A stretch of 64,000 nt of DNA, from contig JBAYVA010000004.1 of the NCBI GenBank assembly GCA_041674805.1, forward strand, positions 30,069 to 94,068. Reading direction: 5' to 3'. A program made the translations under genes and the position numbers. Shown piece by piece: positions 12,651 through 63,530 of this stretch. Under the pieces are notes generated by a model, which saw nothing but the letters and a program-made list of their open reading frames with translations, ran no database searches and was not told the origin of the DNA. Each line of letters opens with the position of its first letter. Position 1 is the first letter of the stretch. Origin of the DNA: Candidatus Magasanikiibacteriota bacterium. Its GTDB lineage: Bacteria; Patescibacteriota; Patescibacteriia; Magasanikbacterales; UBA922.

Positions 12651-12651
12651 G

Positions 12652-12738
12652 CGGAGAGATAGGGATTCGAACCCTAGGAAGGTTTGACCCTTCAACGGTT
12701 TTCAAGACCGCCGCCATAGACCGCTCAGCCATCTCTCC
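12652..12738 (-). tRNA. tRNA-Ser (anticodon UGA)
   Basis: Acceptor GGAGAGA/TCTCTCC, G73, long variable arm, anticodon loop CUUGAAA, T-loop GTTCGAATC; no encoded CCA. Confidence 0.85.
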
Positions 12739-12740
12739 AG

Positions 12741-12774
12741 TTTAACTTTTGACAGTTAACATTTGACAATTAAC
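12741..12774. repeat. direct repeats TTGACA(G/A)TTAAC between tRNA genes
   Basis: tttgacagttaacatttgacaattaac; related copies at 12944-12978 and 12988-13023. Confidence 0.5.
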
Positions 12775-12852
12775 TTATTAAAATAAGGTTAATTTTTAAT
12801 AGTCAAATGTAAATTGTCAAGATTGGTGTATTGTTACTATGATGATCAAAAG

Positions 12853-12941
12853 CGGAGAAGGCGGGATTCGAACCCGCGGTCCGGTTTTACCCAGACAACA
12901 CATTAGCAGTGTGCCCCTTTCGGCCTCTCAGGCACCTCTCC
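12853..12941 (-). tRNA. tRNA-Ser (anticodon GCU)
   Basis: Acceptor GGAGAGG, long variable arm, anticodon loop CUGCUAA, GTTCGAATC T-loop; no encoded CCA. Confidence 0.85.
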
Positions 12942-13026
12942 TATGACAACTTTTAACAGTTGGCAATTGACTATTAACTTTTTTTAAGATGTCAACTGTC
13001 ATTTGTTAAGTGTCAAAAGTTGGTCC

Positions 13027-13116
13027 TGGCGGAGAGACAGGGATTCGAACCCTGGGTCCCCTTGCGGAGACTGCAGTTTAGTAAACTGCTGCTATCGGCC
13101 ACTCAGCCATCTCTCC
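13027..13116 (-). tRNA. Ser-type (class II) tRNA with atypical anticodon loop UUACUAA (anticodon ACU), CCA encoded
   Basis: Acceptor and D arm are identical to tRNA-Ser(UGA). Anticodon stem GCAGU/ACUGC with loop TTACTAA, long variable arm, G73 and a genomically encoded CCA. Confidence 0.6.
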
Positions 13117-18573: not shown

Positions 18574-18752
18574 ATTTGTCTTATTTTACAGCCAGCCATT
18601 ATATCTGATATTCATATTATTGTCAACTATCAAGAAAAAAGGTATAATAGATGTAATTTGTAGAATAACTATTACTTATTTTATAGTTTGTCTTATTTAT
18701 ACAGTTTTTAGTTAAAAGTTTGTAAAGTTCATTCCGCCCAAGGCGGACAAGA

Positions 18753-18818
18753 AAGTTTATAAAGTAATTTGATTGTATATTTATTTTAAAAAACTTTATA
18801 AACTTTTAACTTTATAAA
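18753..18818. repeat. cluster of TTTATAAA-core motifs (ACTTTATAAAC / GTTTATAAAGT) upstream of smc
   Basis: aagtttataaagt, then actttataaac twice. Same family as the motifs at 28915-29009 and 50093-50133. Confidence 0.55.
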
Positions 18819-18895
18819 CTATTTTTATAATAAAATGATATATACTTTAGAAAGTAGTATTTTGTTTAATATTTAATTTATCGTTTGAGTAGTGT

Positions 18896-22171: not shown

Positions 22172-24481
22172 ATGAGTATACACGATGCAATTAAAGAAGG
22201 TGAACATACACAGGAGTTTCAGCCTAGTGTTGCTGAAGCGAAGAATGAAACTCATCAAAAAATAATAGAACTTTTGGAAAATGTACCTGCTGTCCTTAAT
22301 AGTGAAGTGGCTACTACTAAACAGCTAGTTTTTGAGATGATAGAAAGAGCAAAATCTGTTGATCTTGATGCTGAGGATATCTCCGCATTTGAGGATGCTA
22401 TGAAAAATATTGTGAAAGAACTGGAAGTGCTTGCGCAGAAAGTACAGATACAATTGAATGCTATTCAAGCTACTAATGAATTAGTTGCTAGTGGTATTCT
22501 TTCTGTAGAAGATGTACCTGAAGCAGATCCTATAAATTTGGGTGTTTTTCAACAAAGTGTTAGATCAGTGATGTCTCAGGTCAGTGGTGAATTGTCAGCT
22601 ATTGTTAATAAAAATGTACAAGAAAGGTATCGTAGAAGAGCTAGAATTAATTTTGCTGACACATTAAACAGATCTGGATTGAAAAGTTCTCATATAGAAT
22701 TATTTACCATTCCTCCACTTGAACCTTCAGATGTCTTGCAAAAACAAAGGGTAGCTTTTGAGAATGCAAAAAATTCGGCTTCTTTGTCTCAAGATGTGTT
22801 AACAAGAGCAGAAAATAATTTAAGAGCATTAGAACAAAAAGAACAAATTGCCTGGGATGCTTCACACGCTGGCAATTCTGAAGAGATTGCACTTTTGGAT
22901 AGTATTCGTACTGCTTTGGATACGGGAACCTTGGATAAATTATTTGCTAAAAAAGGATTTGATACTGAAAAAGCTGTTAAATTGATTGCTACTCAAATTC
23001 GTGAGAAAGCATTTTCTCTTGATGGTATAGGTAATGATATATTAAAAGAACTTCCAGAAGAAGTTATAAAGGCTATTGTGCAAGATATGTCTGATGAGGA
23101 AATGTGGAAGACTATTAGAGAAATGTCTATGATTGTTGCTGGGAAAAAAACAATTTCATACATATACATAAGCAAACCATACCAGGAAAGATCAAAAAAA
23201 TTAATAAGAACACAGGCAGATGCAATAAAAGTTTTTGATGATTTTTCTATTTATAATAATACATTGGGAAGATTGGTTGATGCTTTGAAAGAAAAATCGG
23301 TAGATAAAAATAATATTCGTGATAAGGCGGTAATGGAATTAAAGGATGTGGCTATAGCTATAAAGGTAATGAAAGATAGTAATGATCCTAATTTGACGTA
23401 TGTTAATTTATTTCCAGATGTACAAGATGATTTTGATAAGTTTATAGAACAAATTGAAACATCTCCAAATTTACAACCTTCTGATATCTTCCAATTTGTT
23501 ACAAAAATTAAGGAGACTTTGTTTCATCCAATAAATAGAATCAAAGAAACTTCATACATTAGTTCTTCTGCTGTAGATGGGGCCACTAGTCTGTATCAAG
23601 ACCAATTGAGGCAATCAGAAGCAAAAAACAGTAGGGAAAGAGAAATTAAGGGAGTAATTAGTGGTGTTTTGAGTGAGTTGTTATCATATAAAGTAGATGA
23701 TTATATAAGAGAAAAATTTGACCTTAATAAGTTAGAAGGTCATTTAAGTTCTATTTCTGCATCTGTTCACGATTATATTTGTGCTGTAAAACTTTGTGAA
23801 TTGCAAGAGCAAGCATATAGAGAATTTAGGAGCAAACCTTTTTTGGGTCAAAATAGAAAAATAGAATTGACTGATGCTCAAAAAGATGCTATTACAGCTA
23901 TTGCACAACTAGAAGGTCAAGAAGATCCTGGTGTTGGGGGAATTAAATTTGTTGATTATAATAAAGAAAGGAATAAAATGTCAGTAAAAAGAGGTATTAT
24001 GGAAGAAAAGAGGATGATTGTTATAAATCAAGTATCTAGATTTAGTACGCCAAATCTAGCTGTGATCAGTAACCTCATGCCCACAAGAGAACAAGTGGTA
24101 TCTTCTGTTTTAGAAAAATTAAAAAGAATTGAAGAAAAAAAATTGGGTGGAAGCTTTTATGTTGATGAATCATTGTTGAAAATAGAAGCCGAAACGTTTG
24201 TTCCTGATATAAAAGAATTACAAAGATCAATAGCAAAAAAAATACTTGCAACAGCAAAAAAATATATGGATTTGCTAGATAAAGCAATAGTATCTTATGA
24301 TACTAAAAATATAGAGGGAATGCAGATAGAATTATCTAATATGGAGACTGTTAATGAAAAAGTAGATTCTTCTTATAAAGAAGTAGTTACTTCTGGAGGA
24401 GGGGGACGTGTGTTGGGAGTATTACAATCTGTTAAGAAGGATCTTCAAGAAATGTTAGATGGTTTTTCAAAATATGAATAA
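22172..24481 (+). CDS. large hypothetical protein (769 aa, predicted all-alpha/coiled-coil, no TM)
   Basis: Long uninterrupted ORF; no recognisable catalytic motifs. Confidence 0.55.
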   Translation: MSIHDAIKEGEHTQEFQPSVAEAKNETHQKIIELLENVPAVLNSEVATTKQLVFEMIERAKSVDLDAEDISAFEDAMKNIVKELEVLAQKVQIQLNAIQATNELVASGILSVEDVPEADPINLGVFQQSVRSVMSQVSGELSAIVNKNVQERYRRRARINFADTLNRSGLKSSHIELFTIPPLEPSDVLQKQRVAFENAKNSASLSQDVLTRAENNLRALEQKEQIAWDASHAGNSEEIALLDSIRTALDTGTLDKLFAKKGFDTEKAVKLIATQIREKAFSLDGIGNDILKELPEEVIKAIVQDMSDEEMWKTIREMSMIVAGKKTISYIYISKPYQERSKKLIRTQADAIKVFDDFSIYNNTLGRLVDALKEKSVDKNNIRDKAVMELKDVAIAIKVMKDSNDPNLTYVNLFPDVQDDFDKFIEQIETSPNLQPSDIFQFVTKIKETLFHPINRIKETSYISSSAVDGATSLYQDQLRQSEAKNSREREIKGVISGVLSELLSYKVDDYIREKFDLNKLEGHLSSISASVHDYICAVKLCELQEQAYREFRSKPFLGQNRKIELTDAQKDAITAIAQLEGQEDPGVGGIKFVDYNKERNKMSVKRGIMEEKRMIVINQVSRFSTPNLAVISNLMPTREQVVSSVLEKLKRIEEKKLGGSFYVDESLLKIEAETFVPDIKELQRSIAKKILATAKKYMDLLDKAIVSYDTKNIEGMQIELSNMETVNEKVDSSYKEVVTSGGGGRVLGVLQSVKKDLQEMLDGFSKYE

Positions 24482-27819: not shown

Positions 27820-28836
27820 ATGCGTAAAGCACTAATAACCGGTATCACCGGACAAGATGGATCTTATTTAGCAGAATTATTGCTAGAAAAAGGTTATGAA
27901 GTACATGGTATTATTCGTCGTTCTAGTAGTTTTAATACGGAAAGAATAGATCATATTTATCGTGATAAACATGAAAAAGGTGTTAAATTATTTTTGCATT
28001 ATGGTGATTTGACAGATAGTAGCAATGTTAGTCGTATTTTGGAAGAAGTAAAACCTGATGAAATATACAATTTGGGAGCACAGAGTCATGTGCGTGTAAG
28101 TTTTGATTTACCAGAGTACACAGCTGATGCTGATGGTTTGGGAACATTACGTTTACTTGATGCTATTCGTGACAAAGGTATGGATGTAAAATTTTATCAA
28201 GCAGGAAGTTCAGAAATGTTTGGCAAAGTTTTGGAAATTCCACAAAAGGAAACAACAGCATTTTATCCTCGTAGTCCATATGCTTGTGCCAAAGTTTATG
28301 CTCATCATATTGCTGTTAATTATCGTGAAAGTTACAATATGTTTGTTTGTAACGGAATACTATTTAATCATGAATCTCCTCGTCGTGGTGGCACTTTTGT
28401 TACCAAAAAAATTGTGGATGCTTTCAAAAATATCAAAGAAGGAAAACAAGAAAAATTGTATTTGGGTAATCTAGAAGCCAAGCGTGATTGGGGTTATGCT
28501 TGTGATTATGTAGAAGCTATGTGGATGATGCTTCAACAAAAAGAGGCTGATGATTATGTCATTGCTACTGGCGAAACTCATAGTGTGCGTGAATTTGTGG
28601 AGGAATCTGCTCCTTATTTTGGTTTTGCTATTGAGTGGAAGGGAAGTGGTATGAAAGAAAAAGGAATTGATAAAAATAGTGGTAAAGTTTTGATTGAAAT
28701 AGATGAACAATATTTTCGTCCAGCAGAAGTAGATTTGCTATTGGGAGATGCTAGTAAGGCTAAAGAAAAATTGAATTGGGTACCAAAAACTAAGTTCAAA
28801 GAGTTGGTGAGTATTATGTGTGAGGAAGAAAAATAA
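27820..28836 (+). CDS. gmd: GDP-mannose 4,6-dehydratase
   Basis: [42 protein letters not shown] is near-identical in pattern to E. coli Gmd. Confidence 0.9.
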
Positions 28837-28889
28837 ATTTGTTGGTTTTTAGAAATTATGTTATAATATTTTCATAAAAAAATAAATGT

Positions 28890-28906
28890 GAGCAGAGGAG
28901 GGGGAG
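28890..28906. repeat. GC-rich 17-mer GAGCAGAGGAGGGGGAG (copy 1 of 2)
   Basis: A second copy, GAGCAAAGGAGGGGGTG, lies at 62992-63008. Both sit in AT-rich intergenic DNA next to long inverted repeats. Confidence 0.5.
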
Positions 28907-28914
28907 TGTATTTA

Positions 28915-28983
28915 GTCCATAAAGTTTATAAAGTCTATAAAGTAAAAAGTTGTGATTTTACGGACTTTATAAACTTTATGGAC
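28915..28983. repeat. perfect 21-bp inverted repeat (GTCCATAAAGTTTATAAAGTC ... GACTTTATAAACTTTATGGAC) between gmd and fcl
   Basis: Arms at 28915-28935 and 28964-28983 are exact reverse complements, with a 28-bp spacer. A third half-site, ggactttatgaac, lies at 28997-29009. Confidence 0.7.
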
Positions 28984-29002
28984 TTTAAATTTTAAGGACT
29001 TT

Positions 29003-29959
29003 ATGAACTATTTATCAAAAATTTATGTAGCTGGACATAATGGAATGGTAGGTTCTGCTATTTTGCGTTTACTTGAAAAACAAGGTTATACAAATATTAT
29101 TATACGTACGAGAGAAGAACTTGATCTGACAAATCAGCAATCTGTGGCAGATTTTTTTGCAACAGAAAAACCAGAATATGTGATTCTGGCAGCTGCCAAA
29201 GTGGGGGGAATTATGGCCAACAATACTTACCCAGCAGATTTTCTCTATCAAAATTTACAAATTCAAAATAATGTAATTCACAATGCCTATTTGAGTGGCG
29301 TGAAGAAGTTGTTGTTTCTTGGATCTTCTTGTATTTATCCAAAGAATTGTCCGCAACCCATGAAAGAAGAATATTTATTGACTGGACTTTTGGAAGAGAC
29401 AAACGAACCTTATGCGATTGCCAAGATTGCGGGAATAAAAATGTGTCAAAGTTACAATAGACAATATGGCACAAATTTTATTGCGGTCATGCCGACCAAT
29501 CTTTATGGGGAGAATGATAATTTTGATTTGAATAATTCTCATGTTTTACCAGCTTTACTTCGCAAGTTTCACGAAGCAAAAATAAATAATTTGTCAGAAG
29601 TAGAAGTGTGGGGTACAGGTACACAAAGACGGGAATTTTTGTATGTGGATGATATGACGAAAGCTTGTCTTTTTGTCTTACAAAATTTTAGTCCAACTAA
29701 GGACCAAAATGAAAATGGCGATATATTTTTTAATATTGGGACTGGAATGGATCTTACTATTCTAGAATTAGCAGAAATGATCAAGAAAATAGTTGGTTTT
29801 GAAGGAAATATAGTTTTTGACACTACTAAACCTGATGGAACTTTGCAAAAACTCTTGGATGTAACAAAAATAAATAACTTAGGTTGGAAAGATGAAAGTA
29901 GTCTAGAAGAGGGTATAAAACAGGTTTATGATTGGTATTTGGACCGTATTGACACCTAG
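29003..29959 (+). CDS. fcl: GDP-L-fucose synthase (GDP-4-keto-6-deoxymannose 3,5-epimerase/4-reductase); a ColC-like alternative is possible
   Basis: IYVAGHNGMVGSAI, LAAAKVGGI.ANNTYPADF and NEPYAIAKIAGIK.C.SYNRQYG collinear with E. coli Fcl. Confidence 0.85.
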   Translation: MNYLSKIYVAGHNGMVGSAILRLLEKQGYTNIIIRTREELDLTNQQSVADFFATEKPEYVILAAAKVGGIMANNTYPADFLYQNLQIQNNVIHNAYLSGVKKLLFLGSSCIYPKNCPQPMKEEYLLTGLLEETNEPYAIAKIAGIKMCQSYNRQYGTNFIAVMPTNLYGENDNFDLNNSHVLPALLRKFHEAKINNLSEVEVWGTGTQRREFLYVDDMTKACLFVLQNFSPTKDQNENGDIFFNIGTGMDLTILELAEMIKKIVGFEGNIVFDTTKPDGTLQKLLDVTKINNLGWKDESSLEEGIKQVYDWYLDRIDT

Positions 29960-48621: not shown

Positions 48622-48685
48622 CTTAGAAGTTTGTAAAGTTAATAAAGTAACTGTTTTTGATATTTCAACTTATTATACAGCTTTT

Positions 48686-50092: not shown

Positions 50093-50133
50093 AGTTTACA
50101 AACTTTATGAACTTTATAACTTTACAAACTATA
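50093..50133. repeat. tandem ACTTTAT(A/G)AAC / TTTACAAAC motifs immediately upstream of galE
   Basis: agtttacaaactttatgaactttataactttacaaactat runs straight into the ATG. Confidence 0.55.
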
Positions 50134-51140
50134 TGAAATATTTAATCACCGGCGGTGCTGGCTACATTGGTAGTCATGTCGTCAAACAATTGATTGACAA
50201 AAAAAACGATATTGTAATTGTAGATAATTTGTCTACTGGTTTACAAAAAACTATCAATACTTTGAAAAAATACGCTGACACCAAAAAAGTAAAATTAAGT
50301 TTTTATAAACTTGATTTGGCTGATAGCAAAAAATTGGAAACTGTTTTTGCCAAAGAAAAAGTTGCAGGTGTAATACATTTTGCTGCGAGTATTGTCGTGC
50401 CAGAATCAGTGATTGACCCTTTGAAATATTATGCTAATAATACGAGTAATACAATTAATTTGATCAAAGCTTGTTTGAAATATAAAGTAAACAAATTTAT
50501 TTTTAGTTCTACTGCTGCTGTCTATGGCGAGCTTGATGCAAAATATATTCCAGCCAAAGAAGATGGACCTGTTTCTCCTATCAATCCTTATGGACAAAGC
50601 AAACTTTTCAATGAAAAGATTATTCAAGATGTAGCTTTTGCTAATTCAAAATTTAAATATGTTATCTTGCGTTATTTCAATGTAGCTGGCGCCTGTCTAG
50701 ATGGCAGTATCGGACAGTCAAGTGAGAAAGCTACTTTACTAGTAAAAGTTTGTGCTGAAGTGGCACTTGGTAAACGCAAAAAATTAACATTATTTGGTAC
50801 TGATTACAAAACACCAGATGGTACTGCTATTCGTGATTATATTCACGTGGATGATTTGGCTTCTGCTCATATCAAAGCTTTGTCTTATTTGAACAAAAAT
50901 AAAAGTGATATTTTCAATTGTGGTTATGGCAAAGGTTTTTCTGTGCAAGAGGTCATAGATATGATGAAAAAAGTCAGTGGAGTTGATTTCAAAGTAGAAA
51001 AAGCAGGAAGACGTCCGGGTGATCCTGCTGTTCTTATTTCTGATAATAGTAAGATAAAAAATAAGATGGACTGGCAACCTAAGTATGATGATTTAGAAAT
51101 TATTTGTCGCACAGCGCTTGAGTGGGAGAAGAAAATTTAG
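50133..51140 (+). CDS. galE: UDP-glucose 4-epimerase
   Basis: ITGGAGYIGSHV, the YGQSKLFNE (YxxxK) motif and GalE length. Confidence 0.85.
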   Translation: MKYLITGGAGYIGSHVVKQLIDKKNDIVIVDNLSTGLQKTINTLKKYADTKKVKLSFYKLDLADSKKLETVFAKEKVAGVIHFAASIVVPESVIDPLKYYANNTSNTINLIKACLKYKVNKFIFSSTAAVYGELDAKYIPAKEDGPVSPINPYGQSKLFNEKIIQDVAFANSKFKYVILRYFNVAGACLDGSIGQSSEKATLLVKVCAEVALGKRKKLTLFGTDYKTPDGTAIRDYIHVDDLASAHIKALSYLNKNKSDIFNCGYGKGFSVQEVIDMMKKVSGVDFKVEKAGRRPGDPAVLISDNSKIKNKMDWQPKYDDLEIICRTALEWEKKI

Positions 51141-62413: not shown

Positions 62414-62896
62414 TTAGTAAGAGAAGTATCCTAATTTTTCTTTCAAATCTTTGAGACGGGCATAAAAGCCTGAAGTATGAATAGAATTGATTTTTAATTT
62501 TTTATAATCATAATGATGGAGCCATTCATGTAGTAGAGTATCTACAAAGCTTTTTGGGGCCAAAATTTGGCCTCTAACAGCTGTTTTGTTGCTAATATGT
62601 ATATATTGACTAAGTGGTTTGTAATAGCCATAACGTCGTAAAGCTACTTTGCCTTTATGTTTTTTATGGTATTGTTTCTCGTCAGATATTTTTAGATGAA
62701 CTATGTCTATCTCAGCTAAGTCAGCCAATTCGTCTAAAAGTTGATCTCCGATGTTTTGTCTTTCTATTTCGTCTTTACTTTTGAGAAGTAAGGCAGTTAG
62801 GTGTCTAGCTTCATCAGAAATAGGGAAGTTTGTTTTTGTGATATAATTACTTATGGCATAATTGGCTTTGGAAAACAAAGCTTTTAAAATTCGCAT
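62414..62896 (-). CDS. hypothetical protein with C-terminal HExxH motif (putative small zinc metallopeptidase, SprT/YgjP-like)
   Basis: LLHEWLHHYD near the C-terminus; 160 aa. Confidence 0.4.
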   Translation of the reverse strand: MRILKALFSKANYAISNYITKTNFPISDEARHLTALLLKSKDEIERQNIGDQLLDELADLAEIDIVHLKISDEKQYHKKHKGKVALRRYGYYKPLSQYIHISNKTAVRGQILAPKSFVDTLLHEWLHHYDYKKLKINSIHTSGFYARLKDLKEKLGYFSY

Positions 62897-62968
62897 AGTC
62901 TAACTAATGATTTTTAAAAATGTTAAAGTATTATAGCATGAAAATTTTTTTAAAACAAAAAAGACCTG

Positions 62969-63031
62969 CTTAATGTTTGGCGTGACATGATGAGCAAAGG
63001 AGGGGGTGCTCCAGTCAACACCAAACATTAA
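62969..63031. repeat. 17-18-bp imperfect inverted repeat enclosing the GC-rich 17-mer (copy 2)
   Basis: Arms cttaatgtttggcgtgac / tcaacaccaaacattaa. The 28-nt loop atgatgagcaaaggagggggtgctccag contains GAGCAAAGGAGGGGGTG. Confidence 0.6.
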
Positions 63032-63145
63032 AAAGATCTTTTATATTATAAAATATTAGCATATTTTGACTTTGGTGTCAAGAGGATATTGTTTGTTTTT
63101 TTAAGAAATAATAAGAAATAAATTGTCTTATATTTTCTATAAAAA

Positions 63146-63176
63146 TAAAAAACTCACTAGATTAGTGAGTTTTTGT
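63146..63176. terminator. bidirectional terminator downstream of rplT
   Basis: Hairpin aactcactag-att-agtgagtt with flanking A/T runs. Confidence 0.6.
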
Positions 63177-63185
63177 TTATTGTAT

Positions 63186-63530
63186 TTATTTTACAGATTC
63201 GTAAATTTTTGTAAATACTTGAGGATGTTTTTCAGCTATTTCTGCTAAAATCTTTCTATCAACTGCTATTTCATGTTTCTTTATAGAAGCCATAAATACA
63301 CTATATGATGTACCTAAGGCACGAACAGCTGCATTGATTTTTACTTGCCATAAACGGCGATTTTCTCTTTTTTTGTTTTTTCTATCACGATAAGCGTATG
63401 CACCAGCTTTTGTTTCAGCAGTTTGAGCTAGTTTGATAAGATTTTTTCTACCAGCTTCAAAACCTTTGGTTCTTTTCATGATGGCCTTACGGCGTTTGAC
63501 GTGTTGTACACCTCTTTTTACTCTAGGCAT
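63186..63530 (-). CDS. rplT: 50S ribosomal protein L20
   Basis: MPRVKRGVQHVKRRKAIMKRTKGF... bL20 N-terminus and length. Confidence 0.9.
   Translation of the reverse strand: MPRVKRGVQHVKRRKAIMKRTKGFEAGRKNLIKLAQTAETKAGAYAYRDRKNKKRENRRLWQVKINAAVRALGTSYSVFMASIKKHEIAVDRKILAEIAEKHPQVFTKIYESVK

Follow-up and report, generated by a model that had tools for sequence, protein, structure and literature searches.

Two intergenic spacers of the window, by which we mean the whole 64,000-nt stretch of DNA that was analysed, share a G-rich motif. The window belongs to a metagenome contig of 744 kb (ENA ERZ27247358 k141_1563332), and proteins homologous to those that it encodes carry the names Candidatus Magasanikbacteria or Parcubacteria, which places the host among the Patescibacteria (CPR). 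One spacer separates gmd from fcl, which is followed by an HTH_17 gene and then by a long polysaccharide gene cluster. The other separates rplT from a gene for a 160-aa protein and holds, in minus-strand order, a terminator of rplT, the promoter of a predicted small RNA, a long hairpin and the U-run UCUUUUUUGUUUU (Table 1).

Table 1. Features of the two spacers and of their neighbouring genes; positions refer to the window.
Feature	Position	Strand	Evidence or remark
gmd	27820-28836		upstream of copy 1
Putative fcl-leader promoter	28839-28867	+	sequence reading; block aaaTTATGTTATAAT conserved in relatives L135 and L229
Copy 1, GUGAGCAGAGGAGGGGG, 17 nt, candidate target site	28888-28904	+	duplex scan; leader alignment
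Long fcl-leader hairpin, perfect 21-bp core	28914-28984	+	9-nt ACTTTATRR units; unrelated to the small RNA
fcl (GDP-L-fucose synthase), first gene after the leader	29003-29959	+	Pfam annotation, source names
Gene for 160-aa protein	62414-62896	-	downstream of the small RNA
Predicted small RNA transcript, ~100 nt	62946-63046	-	fold and covariance model; ends inferred
Conserved 29-bp hairpin	62962-63039	-	RNAalifold, 28 homologues
10-nt apical loop CCCCCUCCUU	62997-63006	-	plus strand is AAGGAGGGGG, the core of copy 2
Sigma-70-type promoter of the small RNA	63053-63081	-	promoter scan
Separate intrinsic terminator of rplT	63148-63174	-	terminator scan: 12-bp stem, then T-run
rplT	63186-63530	-

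The initial annotation had described a 15-mer that occurs twice on the plus strand, and both occurrences are present (GAGCAGAGGAGGGGG at 28890-28904, hereafter copy 1, and GAGCAAAGGAGGGGG at 62992-63006, copy 2). The stretch common to the two copies extends one base further and amounts to 16 nt, TGAGCARAGGAGGGGG, at 28889-28904 and 62991-63006. The claim that such a repeat is unlikely to have arisen by chance was upheld, with 0.03 matches expected at ≤2 mismatches and none of 100 shuffles reaching two. A third copy of the 16-mer was not found in the window, even when three mismatches were allowed. The third occurrence of GGAGGGGG, at 24398, encodes Ser-Gly-Gly-Gly-Gly-Arg within a gene and was rejected as a further copy of the motif, being a chance match in the poly-Gly stretch of a 769-aa ORF. 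When genome contigs were searched with CCCCCTCCTYTGCTC, at least 119 loci were returned, nearly all of them chance matches in GC-rich genomes; among the matches listed, L019 was the sole true homologue and the L014 match lay within a CDS.

The long inverted repeats said to adjoin the motif are real in both cases. Copy 1 stands next to a perfect 21-bp repeat within 35-nt arms (28914-28948 and 28950-28984), and copy 2 is enclosed by 36-nt arms (62948-62983 and 63018-63053). Apart from the motif itself, the flanks of copy 1 are unrelated to those of copy 2. The repeats are also different in kind, that at copy 2 being an RNA stem with its terminator and that at copy 1 a hairpin of an unrelated repeat family. 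Because a covariance model of the RNA, described below, has a single match in the window and none at copy 1, the two copies are, by this sequence-based measure, not two members of one element.

A miniature mobile element of the REP or MITE type had been among the original suggestions, and the likeness is a short GC-rich sequence beside inverted repeats in AT-rich intergenic DNA. Such elements are recognised by dispersed copies with related flanks or terminal repeats; the 64-kb window, in contrast, holds two 16-mers only, with unrelated flanks and one structured copy, and the structured hairpin is syntenic after rplT across divergent genomes rather than dispersed. We therefore abandoned this suggestion for the window.

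The hairpin beside copy 1 belongs to a family of dispersed intergenic 9-nt units (ACTTTATRR/GACTTTATG), for which we counted 15 matches in the window versus 1.3 expected. Sites of this family lie at 18750-18824, 28910-29013, 48633-48648 and 50093-50134, and the units often reach start codons, as they do at fcl and at the gene at 50133. In relatives, lineage-specific versions of the repeat flank 23S_rRNA_IVP genes (PF05635), and such a gene lies within the gmd-fcl spacer hairpin in L135 (2071-2421), L216 (1310-1660) and L231 (1008-1424). Because the fcl-leader arms enclose the IVP gene in L135 and L216, the window holds the 'empty' form of this arrangement. IVP genes are also found before gmd (L132, L217) and before smpB/infC (L003, L009), which suggests that they move between intergenic hairpins.

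The hairpin downstream of rplT and its homologues

The predicted promoter of the spacer hairpin consists of TTGACA (63081-63076), a 17-nt spacer and TGc-TAATAT (-10 at 63058-63053). We placed the start of the RNA 7 nt past the -10 element and its 3' end at the U-run. In the hairpin, a small internal loop separates a lower helix of 23 bp from an apical helix of 6 bp, with GAGCA/UGCUC as the apical stem of the window RNA, and a 117-nt stretch of the region folds at -41.5 kcal/mol (z = -8.05). By sequence prediction, the region has the promoter and the Rho-independent terminator of an independent transcription unit. Copy 2 had been described as the loop of its inverted repeat, which is right for AAGGAGGGGG and wrong for GAGCA, because the latter pairs with TGCTC in the apical stem.

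Homologous promoters, hairpins and terminators were found in the matching spacer of relatives with a protein identity of only 72-73%, as well as in a Magasanikiibacteriota genome (L019) that has a different downstream gene. A protein-anchored scan of metagenome contigs contributed 80 loci, which together with the earlier loci resulted in 28 distinct RNA sequences. RNAalifold analysis of these homologues identified compensatory changes in 26 of 29 pairs. Paired cells made up 92% of the cells of this structure, compared with 77% in shuffled and 41-51% in slid controls, and cells with double changes numbered 132 versus 38 in shuffles; none of 500 shuffles reached any of the observed measures.

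The same alignment indicates the strand. On the strand that carries the C-rich loop, 81 G.U cells stand against 13 A.C cells and 92.0% of cells are paired, compared with 83.6% on the other strand. Because of this excess of G.U pairs, we assign the RNA to the minus strand, and the orientation of promoter and terminator agrees. It follows that the functional sequence at copy 2 would be the C-rich complement CCCCCUCCUU, shown in the hairpin loop, rather than the G-rich motif as it was first read. The suggestion that the motif is the conserved core of a small RNA thus stands for copy 2, where it falls in a covarying hairpin of the opposite strand, and not for copy 1, which is an antisense site.

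In the window, the covariance model has one match (62948-63048, minus strand, 90.8 bits, E = 5e-21), and in 30 related loci it has one match each, with 57-100 bits. A 30-bit match in L165 was rejected as a homologue because it is a generic terminator. The loop is identical in 26 of the 28 distinct homologues and has a U at position 1 in the remaining two. Since the loop was the feature by which homologues were first collected, part of this constancy is built into the sample. No homologue with a different loop was recovered by the covariance model, and within the ~0.5 Mb of CPR sequence searched, the exact loop 10-mer occurs only in these hairpins. The structure backed by covariation thus contains a conserved single-stranded C-rich segment of the kind expected of a seed. 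The lower helix is conserved in sequence as well (GUGUUUGGCG/CGCCGRACAC). A promoter of the form TTGACA-16/18-TAnnnT precedes 22 of the 28 homologues, with the end of the -10 element located 13-24 nt before the hairpin base.

L153 carries two tandem hairpins of the small RNA after rplT (2740-2934), with a U-run only after the second and with different apical stems (GAGCA/UGCUC and GAGUA/UACUC). Its second copy was found by the loop search only; the trace that it left in the covariance search is a 32.5-bit match on the opposite strand.

The location of the hairpin is as constant as its loop. In all 27 metagenome loci that contain rplT, the small RNA lies 4-490 nt downstream of this gene; it was found in no metagenome locus without rplT, it has the same position in L019, and the linkage also holds where rplT does not adjoin the gene for the 160-aa protein. 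Judged from these loci, the predicted RNA gene is always just downstream of rplT, in the infC-rpmI-rplT operon context, in Magasanikbacteria and related Patescibacteria. The 160-aa protein that is encoded downstream of the RNA in the window has no Pfam match and is conserved across lineages of the Parcubacteria group; it has an invariant HEWxHH(Y/F)D motif together with NSIH(T/S)xGFY and may be an uncharacterised metal-dependent hydrolase.

In four loci (L146, L149, L156 and L178), the hairpin follows the rplT stop codon by 4-15 nt and is the sole terminator-like element. Given this distance and the lack of a separate promoter there, the hairpin of those lineages would serve the infC-rpmI-rplT operon as 3' UTR and terminator. 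Several features go beyond what a terminator needs: the stem has 29 bp, the 10-nt loop is constant, 22 of 28 homologues are preceded by a promoter of their own and, in the window, rplT has a separate terminator. We also considered an autoregulatory target in the leaders of infC-rpmI-rplT and rejected it, since these leaders have no G-rich site of ≥7 nt.

A scan of the window at the Rfam gathering thresholds (Rfam 15) returned four tRNAs and nothing else, and scans of both copies at E ≤ 10 gave only low-scoring, unrelated matches. As judged by these scans, the small RNA belongs to no known Rfam family. Taken together, copy 2 very probably marks a structured small RNA of ~100 nt that has not been described before.

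Elsewhere in the window, three tandem tRNA-Ser genes lie on the minus strand (12651-13116). The third (13027-13116) was assigned the anticodon ACT (ACU) by ARAGORN, with A at position 34, and an ACU tRNA-Ser is unusual for bacteria, especially beside a GCU isoacceptor.

The fcl leader as a candidate target

Copy 1 is complementary to the RNA over its full 17 nt: GUGAGCAGAGGAGGGGG pairs with CCCCCUCCUUUGCUCAU, which comprises the loop and the 3' strand of the apical stem, through 15 Watson-Crick and two G.U pairs in an uninterrupted run. When both strands of the 64-kb window were scanned for duplexes, against a background of -7.9 ± 3.7 kcal/mol, copy 1 was the best non-self partner with -37.7 kcal/mol, compared with -28.4 kcal/mol for the next best. 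For seven of the 17 pairs, the apical stem has to be opened.

The putative promoter between gmd and copy 1 has a weak -35 element, TTGTTG (28839-28844), and an extended -10 element, TGtTATAAT (28859-28867); owing to the poor -35, it was missing from the output of the consensus scan. With a leader start near 28874, as this promoter would predict, copy 1 is located ~15 nt from the 5' end of the transcript and ~100 nt ahead of the start codon of fcl. A model in which copy 1 clamps the start codon until it is opened by the RNA was rejected: the predicted unpaired probability of the AUG region is 0.45 when the leader is free and 0.42 when it is bound.

Among relatives, the site is retained as AGGAGUAGAGGAGGGGG in L135/L216 and as AGGAGCAAAGGAGG in L229/L230, whose fcl genes are 81 and 79% identical to that of the window, respectively. 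It has decayed in L132 (83%), where an intact RNA gene is present on the same 89-kb contig, has been replaced by a different G/C-rich element in L217 (77%) and is absent from L218 (76%). Given these losses, the constancy of the loop cannot be due to the fcl leader.

In the leader alignment, the site forms a conserved island, and both flanks have diverged in length and composition. Pairing appears to be kept, because the variable positions of the site are C or U opposite a G of the RNA and A or G opposite a U. At the site's edge, a U in the window faces the A of the window's own RNA (UGCUCA), and a G in the relatives faces the C of all sister-clade RNAs (UGCUCC); to read this as a compensatory change assumes that site and RNA share a genome, as the leader sites and RNA genes of the relatives are on different contigs. 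No sample is listed for both these RNA genes and the leader sites, and several lineages occur together in one sample. As far as the aligned leaders go, the substitution pattern at the site is what RNA-RNA pairing predicts.

In L229, a GC-rich hairpin with a T-run, CTCCCTC-gaata-GGGGGAG, lies after the leader site (1165-1235). Located between promoter and fcl, this hairpin resembles an attenuator; by pairing with its 5' arm, the motif could serve as an anti-terminator.

The host had been described as lacking Shine-Dalgarno (SD) sequences, and this is correct for the window, in which none of ~53 gene starts has a GGAGG-type core upstream. AGGAGG occurs seven times in the window versus 10.6 times expected and is therefore not enriched. 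SD-like cores precede only 8 of 292 ORFs in the related loci, and the strongest belong to DUF559 endonuclease cassettes. In L151, AGGAGGGGG lies 9 nt before the ATG of a DUF559 gene that adjoins the RNA gene, and it is complementary to the loop. The strong SDs of these cassettes suggest a wider role of the RNA in binding SD-like sequences.

DUF559 (Vsr-like endonuclease) genes have C-rich/G-rich hairpins (CCCCCTCCTAgTAGGAGGGGttaGGGGAGG) and strong SDs ahead of them, in genomes otherwise without SDs. Sites of this type lie at 436-505 of L135, 2440-2503 of L151 and 9860-9960 of L217, where L217 has a DUF559-cassette remnant without its gene in the gmd-fcl spacer.

From these observations, we propose a new family of base-pairing sRNAs with a candidate target in the leader of the fcl/polysaccharide operon, a reading that we consider reasonably probable on the sequence evidence; that copy 1 in particular is a functional target has, in our estimate, slightly better than an even chance. 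In the proposed mechanism, the loop would nucleate pairing with the G-rich site of the fcl leader, and the duplex would then spread into the 3' strand of the apical stem. Pairing would alter the fcl-operon transcript through its stability, through read-through of the leader hairpin or through translation. More generally, the RNA may bind rare G-rich, SD-like sequences in a host whose own genes are without SDs.

Other explanations for the loop and the leader site

The loop is complementary to AAGGAGGGGG, an extended SD, and contains CCUCCUU. This is the anti-SD core of 16S rRNA in general, as distinct from one read from the host; no 16S rRNA was found in any locus examined. The hairpin might act through a protein instead, as a housekeeping RNA that is tied to infC-rpmI-rplT and whose match at copy 1 is due to coincidence or descent; for example, it could mimic the 16S 3' end and thereby bind or titrate IF3, a ribosomal protein or another 3'-end factor. 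Such a role would fit the strict linkage to rplT in 27 of 27 loci whatever gene lies downstream, a loop that does not change among lineages without the site in their fcl leader, the CCUCCUU that the loop has in common with the anti-SD core, and a lower helix that is conserved in sequence. However, a lineage-matched complementarity of 17 nt that runs past the loop into a covarying stem is hard to expect unless the RNAs pair, the data do not allow a binding protein to be named, and no known structured-RNA family reached or approached its gathering score in Rfam scans of the region. We regard this explanation as unlikely. A long shot is that the RNA is an abundant anti-SD mimic, linked to a ribosomal operon, that selectively binds and silences the rare SD-led transcripts, many of them from selfish or acquired cassettes such as the DUF559 endonuclease genes, with AGGAGGGGG ahead of their start codons; in that case, the site in the fcl leader would represent a domesticated or remnant SD-like site. 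If true, the host would have an RNA-level means of telling its own translation signals from foreign ones.

A mobile-element origin of copy 1 is possible on sequence grounds, and the site might accordingly be a non-functional remnant, either an arm of a DUF559-cassette hairpin or an inverted partial duplication of the RNA gene. DUF559 cassettes do carry hairpins of the form CCCCCTCCTA-N-TAGGAGGGG-TTA-GGGGAGG, the gene-less remnant of L217 lies in the very same spacer, the L135 site AGTAGAGGAGGGGG resembles the cassette arm AGTAGGAGGGG, and the gmd-fcl spacer is a hot spot of insertion, as shown by the IVP genes in L135 and L231. An origin of this kind would, however, leave the lineage-matched complementarity to the RNA unexplained. 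Three lineages keep the site directly behind the promoter, with flanks that have diverged in length as well as in sequence, the only substitutions seen are those that preserve pairing, and neither a DUF559 gene nor a second cassette arm was found in the window. Moreover, a 17-nt match to an RNA that is probably abundant would be expected to pair whatever its origin. We thus consider a mere remnant rather improbable.

That the G-rich motif is a true SD, serving a small leader ORF at copy 1 and another ORF on the plus strand at copy 2, seems very improbable to us. The ORF at copy 1 would start with GTG at 28906, span 30 codons and end 8 nt before fcl. A GTG follows AGGAGG both in the window and in L135, there is apparent conservation of the first residues, LVHKVYKV, and a few genes of related genomes do use strong SDs. 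Against this, the expectation of a small ORF beginning 5-9 nt past AGGAGG was not borne out, as the GTG follows at 4 nt in the window and at 2 nt in L135, and in L229 the motif is not followed by a start codon. The likeness in LVHKVYKV falls on repeat units of the nucleotide sequence in the hairpin arm, and these units recur in inverted orientation on the opposite arm; in addition, the plus strand at copy 2 is antisense to the covarying RNA hairpin.

Relation to known RNAs and significance

For the preferred reading, a base-pairing sRNA with a candidate target at fcl, the closest class that we can propose by analogy is that of RsaE/RoxS (Rfam RF01820) of Staphylococcus and Bacillus. These are short trans-acting RNAs whose unpaired, C-rich loop motifs pair with G-rich, SD-like sequences of mRNAs, and the predicted RNA is likewise short, with its own promoter and an intrinsic terminator. 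RoxS pairs with the extreme 5' end of the yflS mRNA and thereby shields it from RNase J1, and copy 1 would also be located near the 5' end of its leader. The differences are substantial: there is no homology in sequence or structure to RsaE, which gave no match in cmscan at E ≤ 10, and where RsaE/RoxS have several C-rich regions, the RNA described here consists of one long hairpin with a single 10-nt loop. RsaE/RoxS have no counterpart to the fixed position after rplT. Because the host has almost no SD-led genes, a general blocking of SDs cannot be the main role of the RNA.

In the lineages in which the hairpin follows rplT by 4-15 nt, the RNA resembles the 3' UTR-derived sRNAs CpxQ, DapZ and SroC of enterobacteria in that an mRNA terminator would be reused. 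However, the seed of those sRNAs is usually located 5' of the terminator hairpin, whereas here it would be the terminator's own loop. In further contrast to them, the RNA has its own consensus promoter in the window and in most Magasanikbacteria, and rplT has a separate terminator in the window. The 4.5S SRP RNA (RF00169) is similar as a single hairpin of ~100 nt with a conserved apex and a strong promoter in a reduced genome, but the RNA described here has no GNRA tetraloop and none of the conserved symmetric and asymmetric loop motifs, and cmscan at E ≤ 10 gave no match.

Patescibacteria/CPR bacteria have tiny genomes with few recognisable regulators and are without genetics, and the present host is uncultured. 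In our searches of the literature on SD usage and on small or noncoding RNAs of this group, we found no report of regulatory RNAs, and a literature search on the loop sequence returned nothing relevant. The case also illustrates that what looks like an 'SD-like repeat' can turn out to be the antisense signature left by an sRNA and its target. If our reading is correct, these bacteria possess a widely conserved, structure-backed sRNA family that is recognisable by its location after rplT and whose seed is the complement of an extended SD, in genomes that hardly use SDs. Its candidate target, the leader of a GDP-fucose/surface-polysaccharide operon, belongs to a locus that is likely relevant to the episymbiotic lifestyle, and post-transcriptional regulation in CPR bacteria would thereby become testable.
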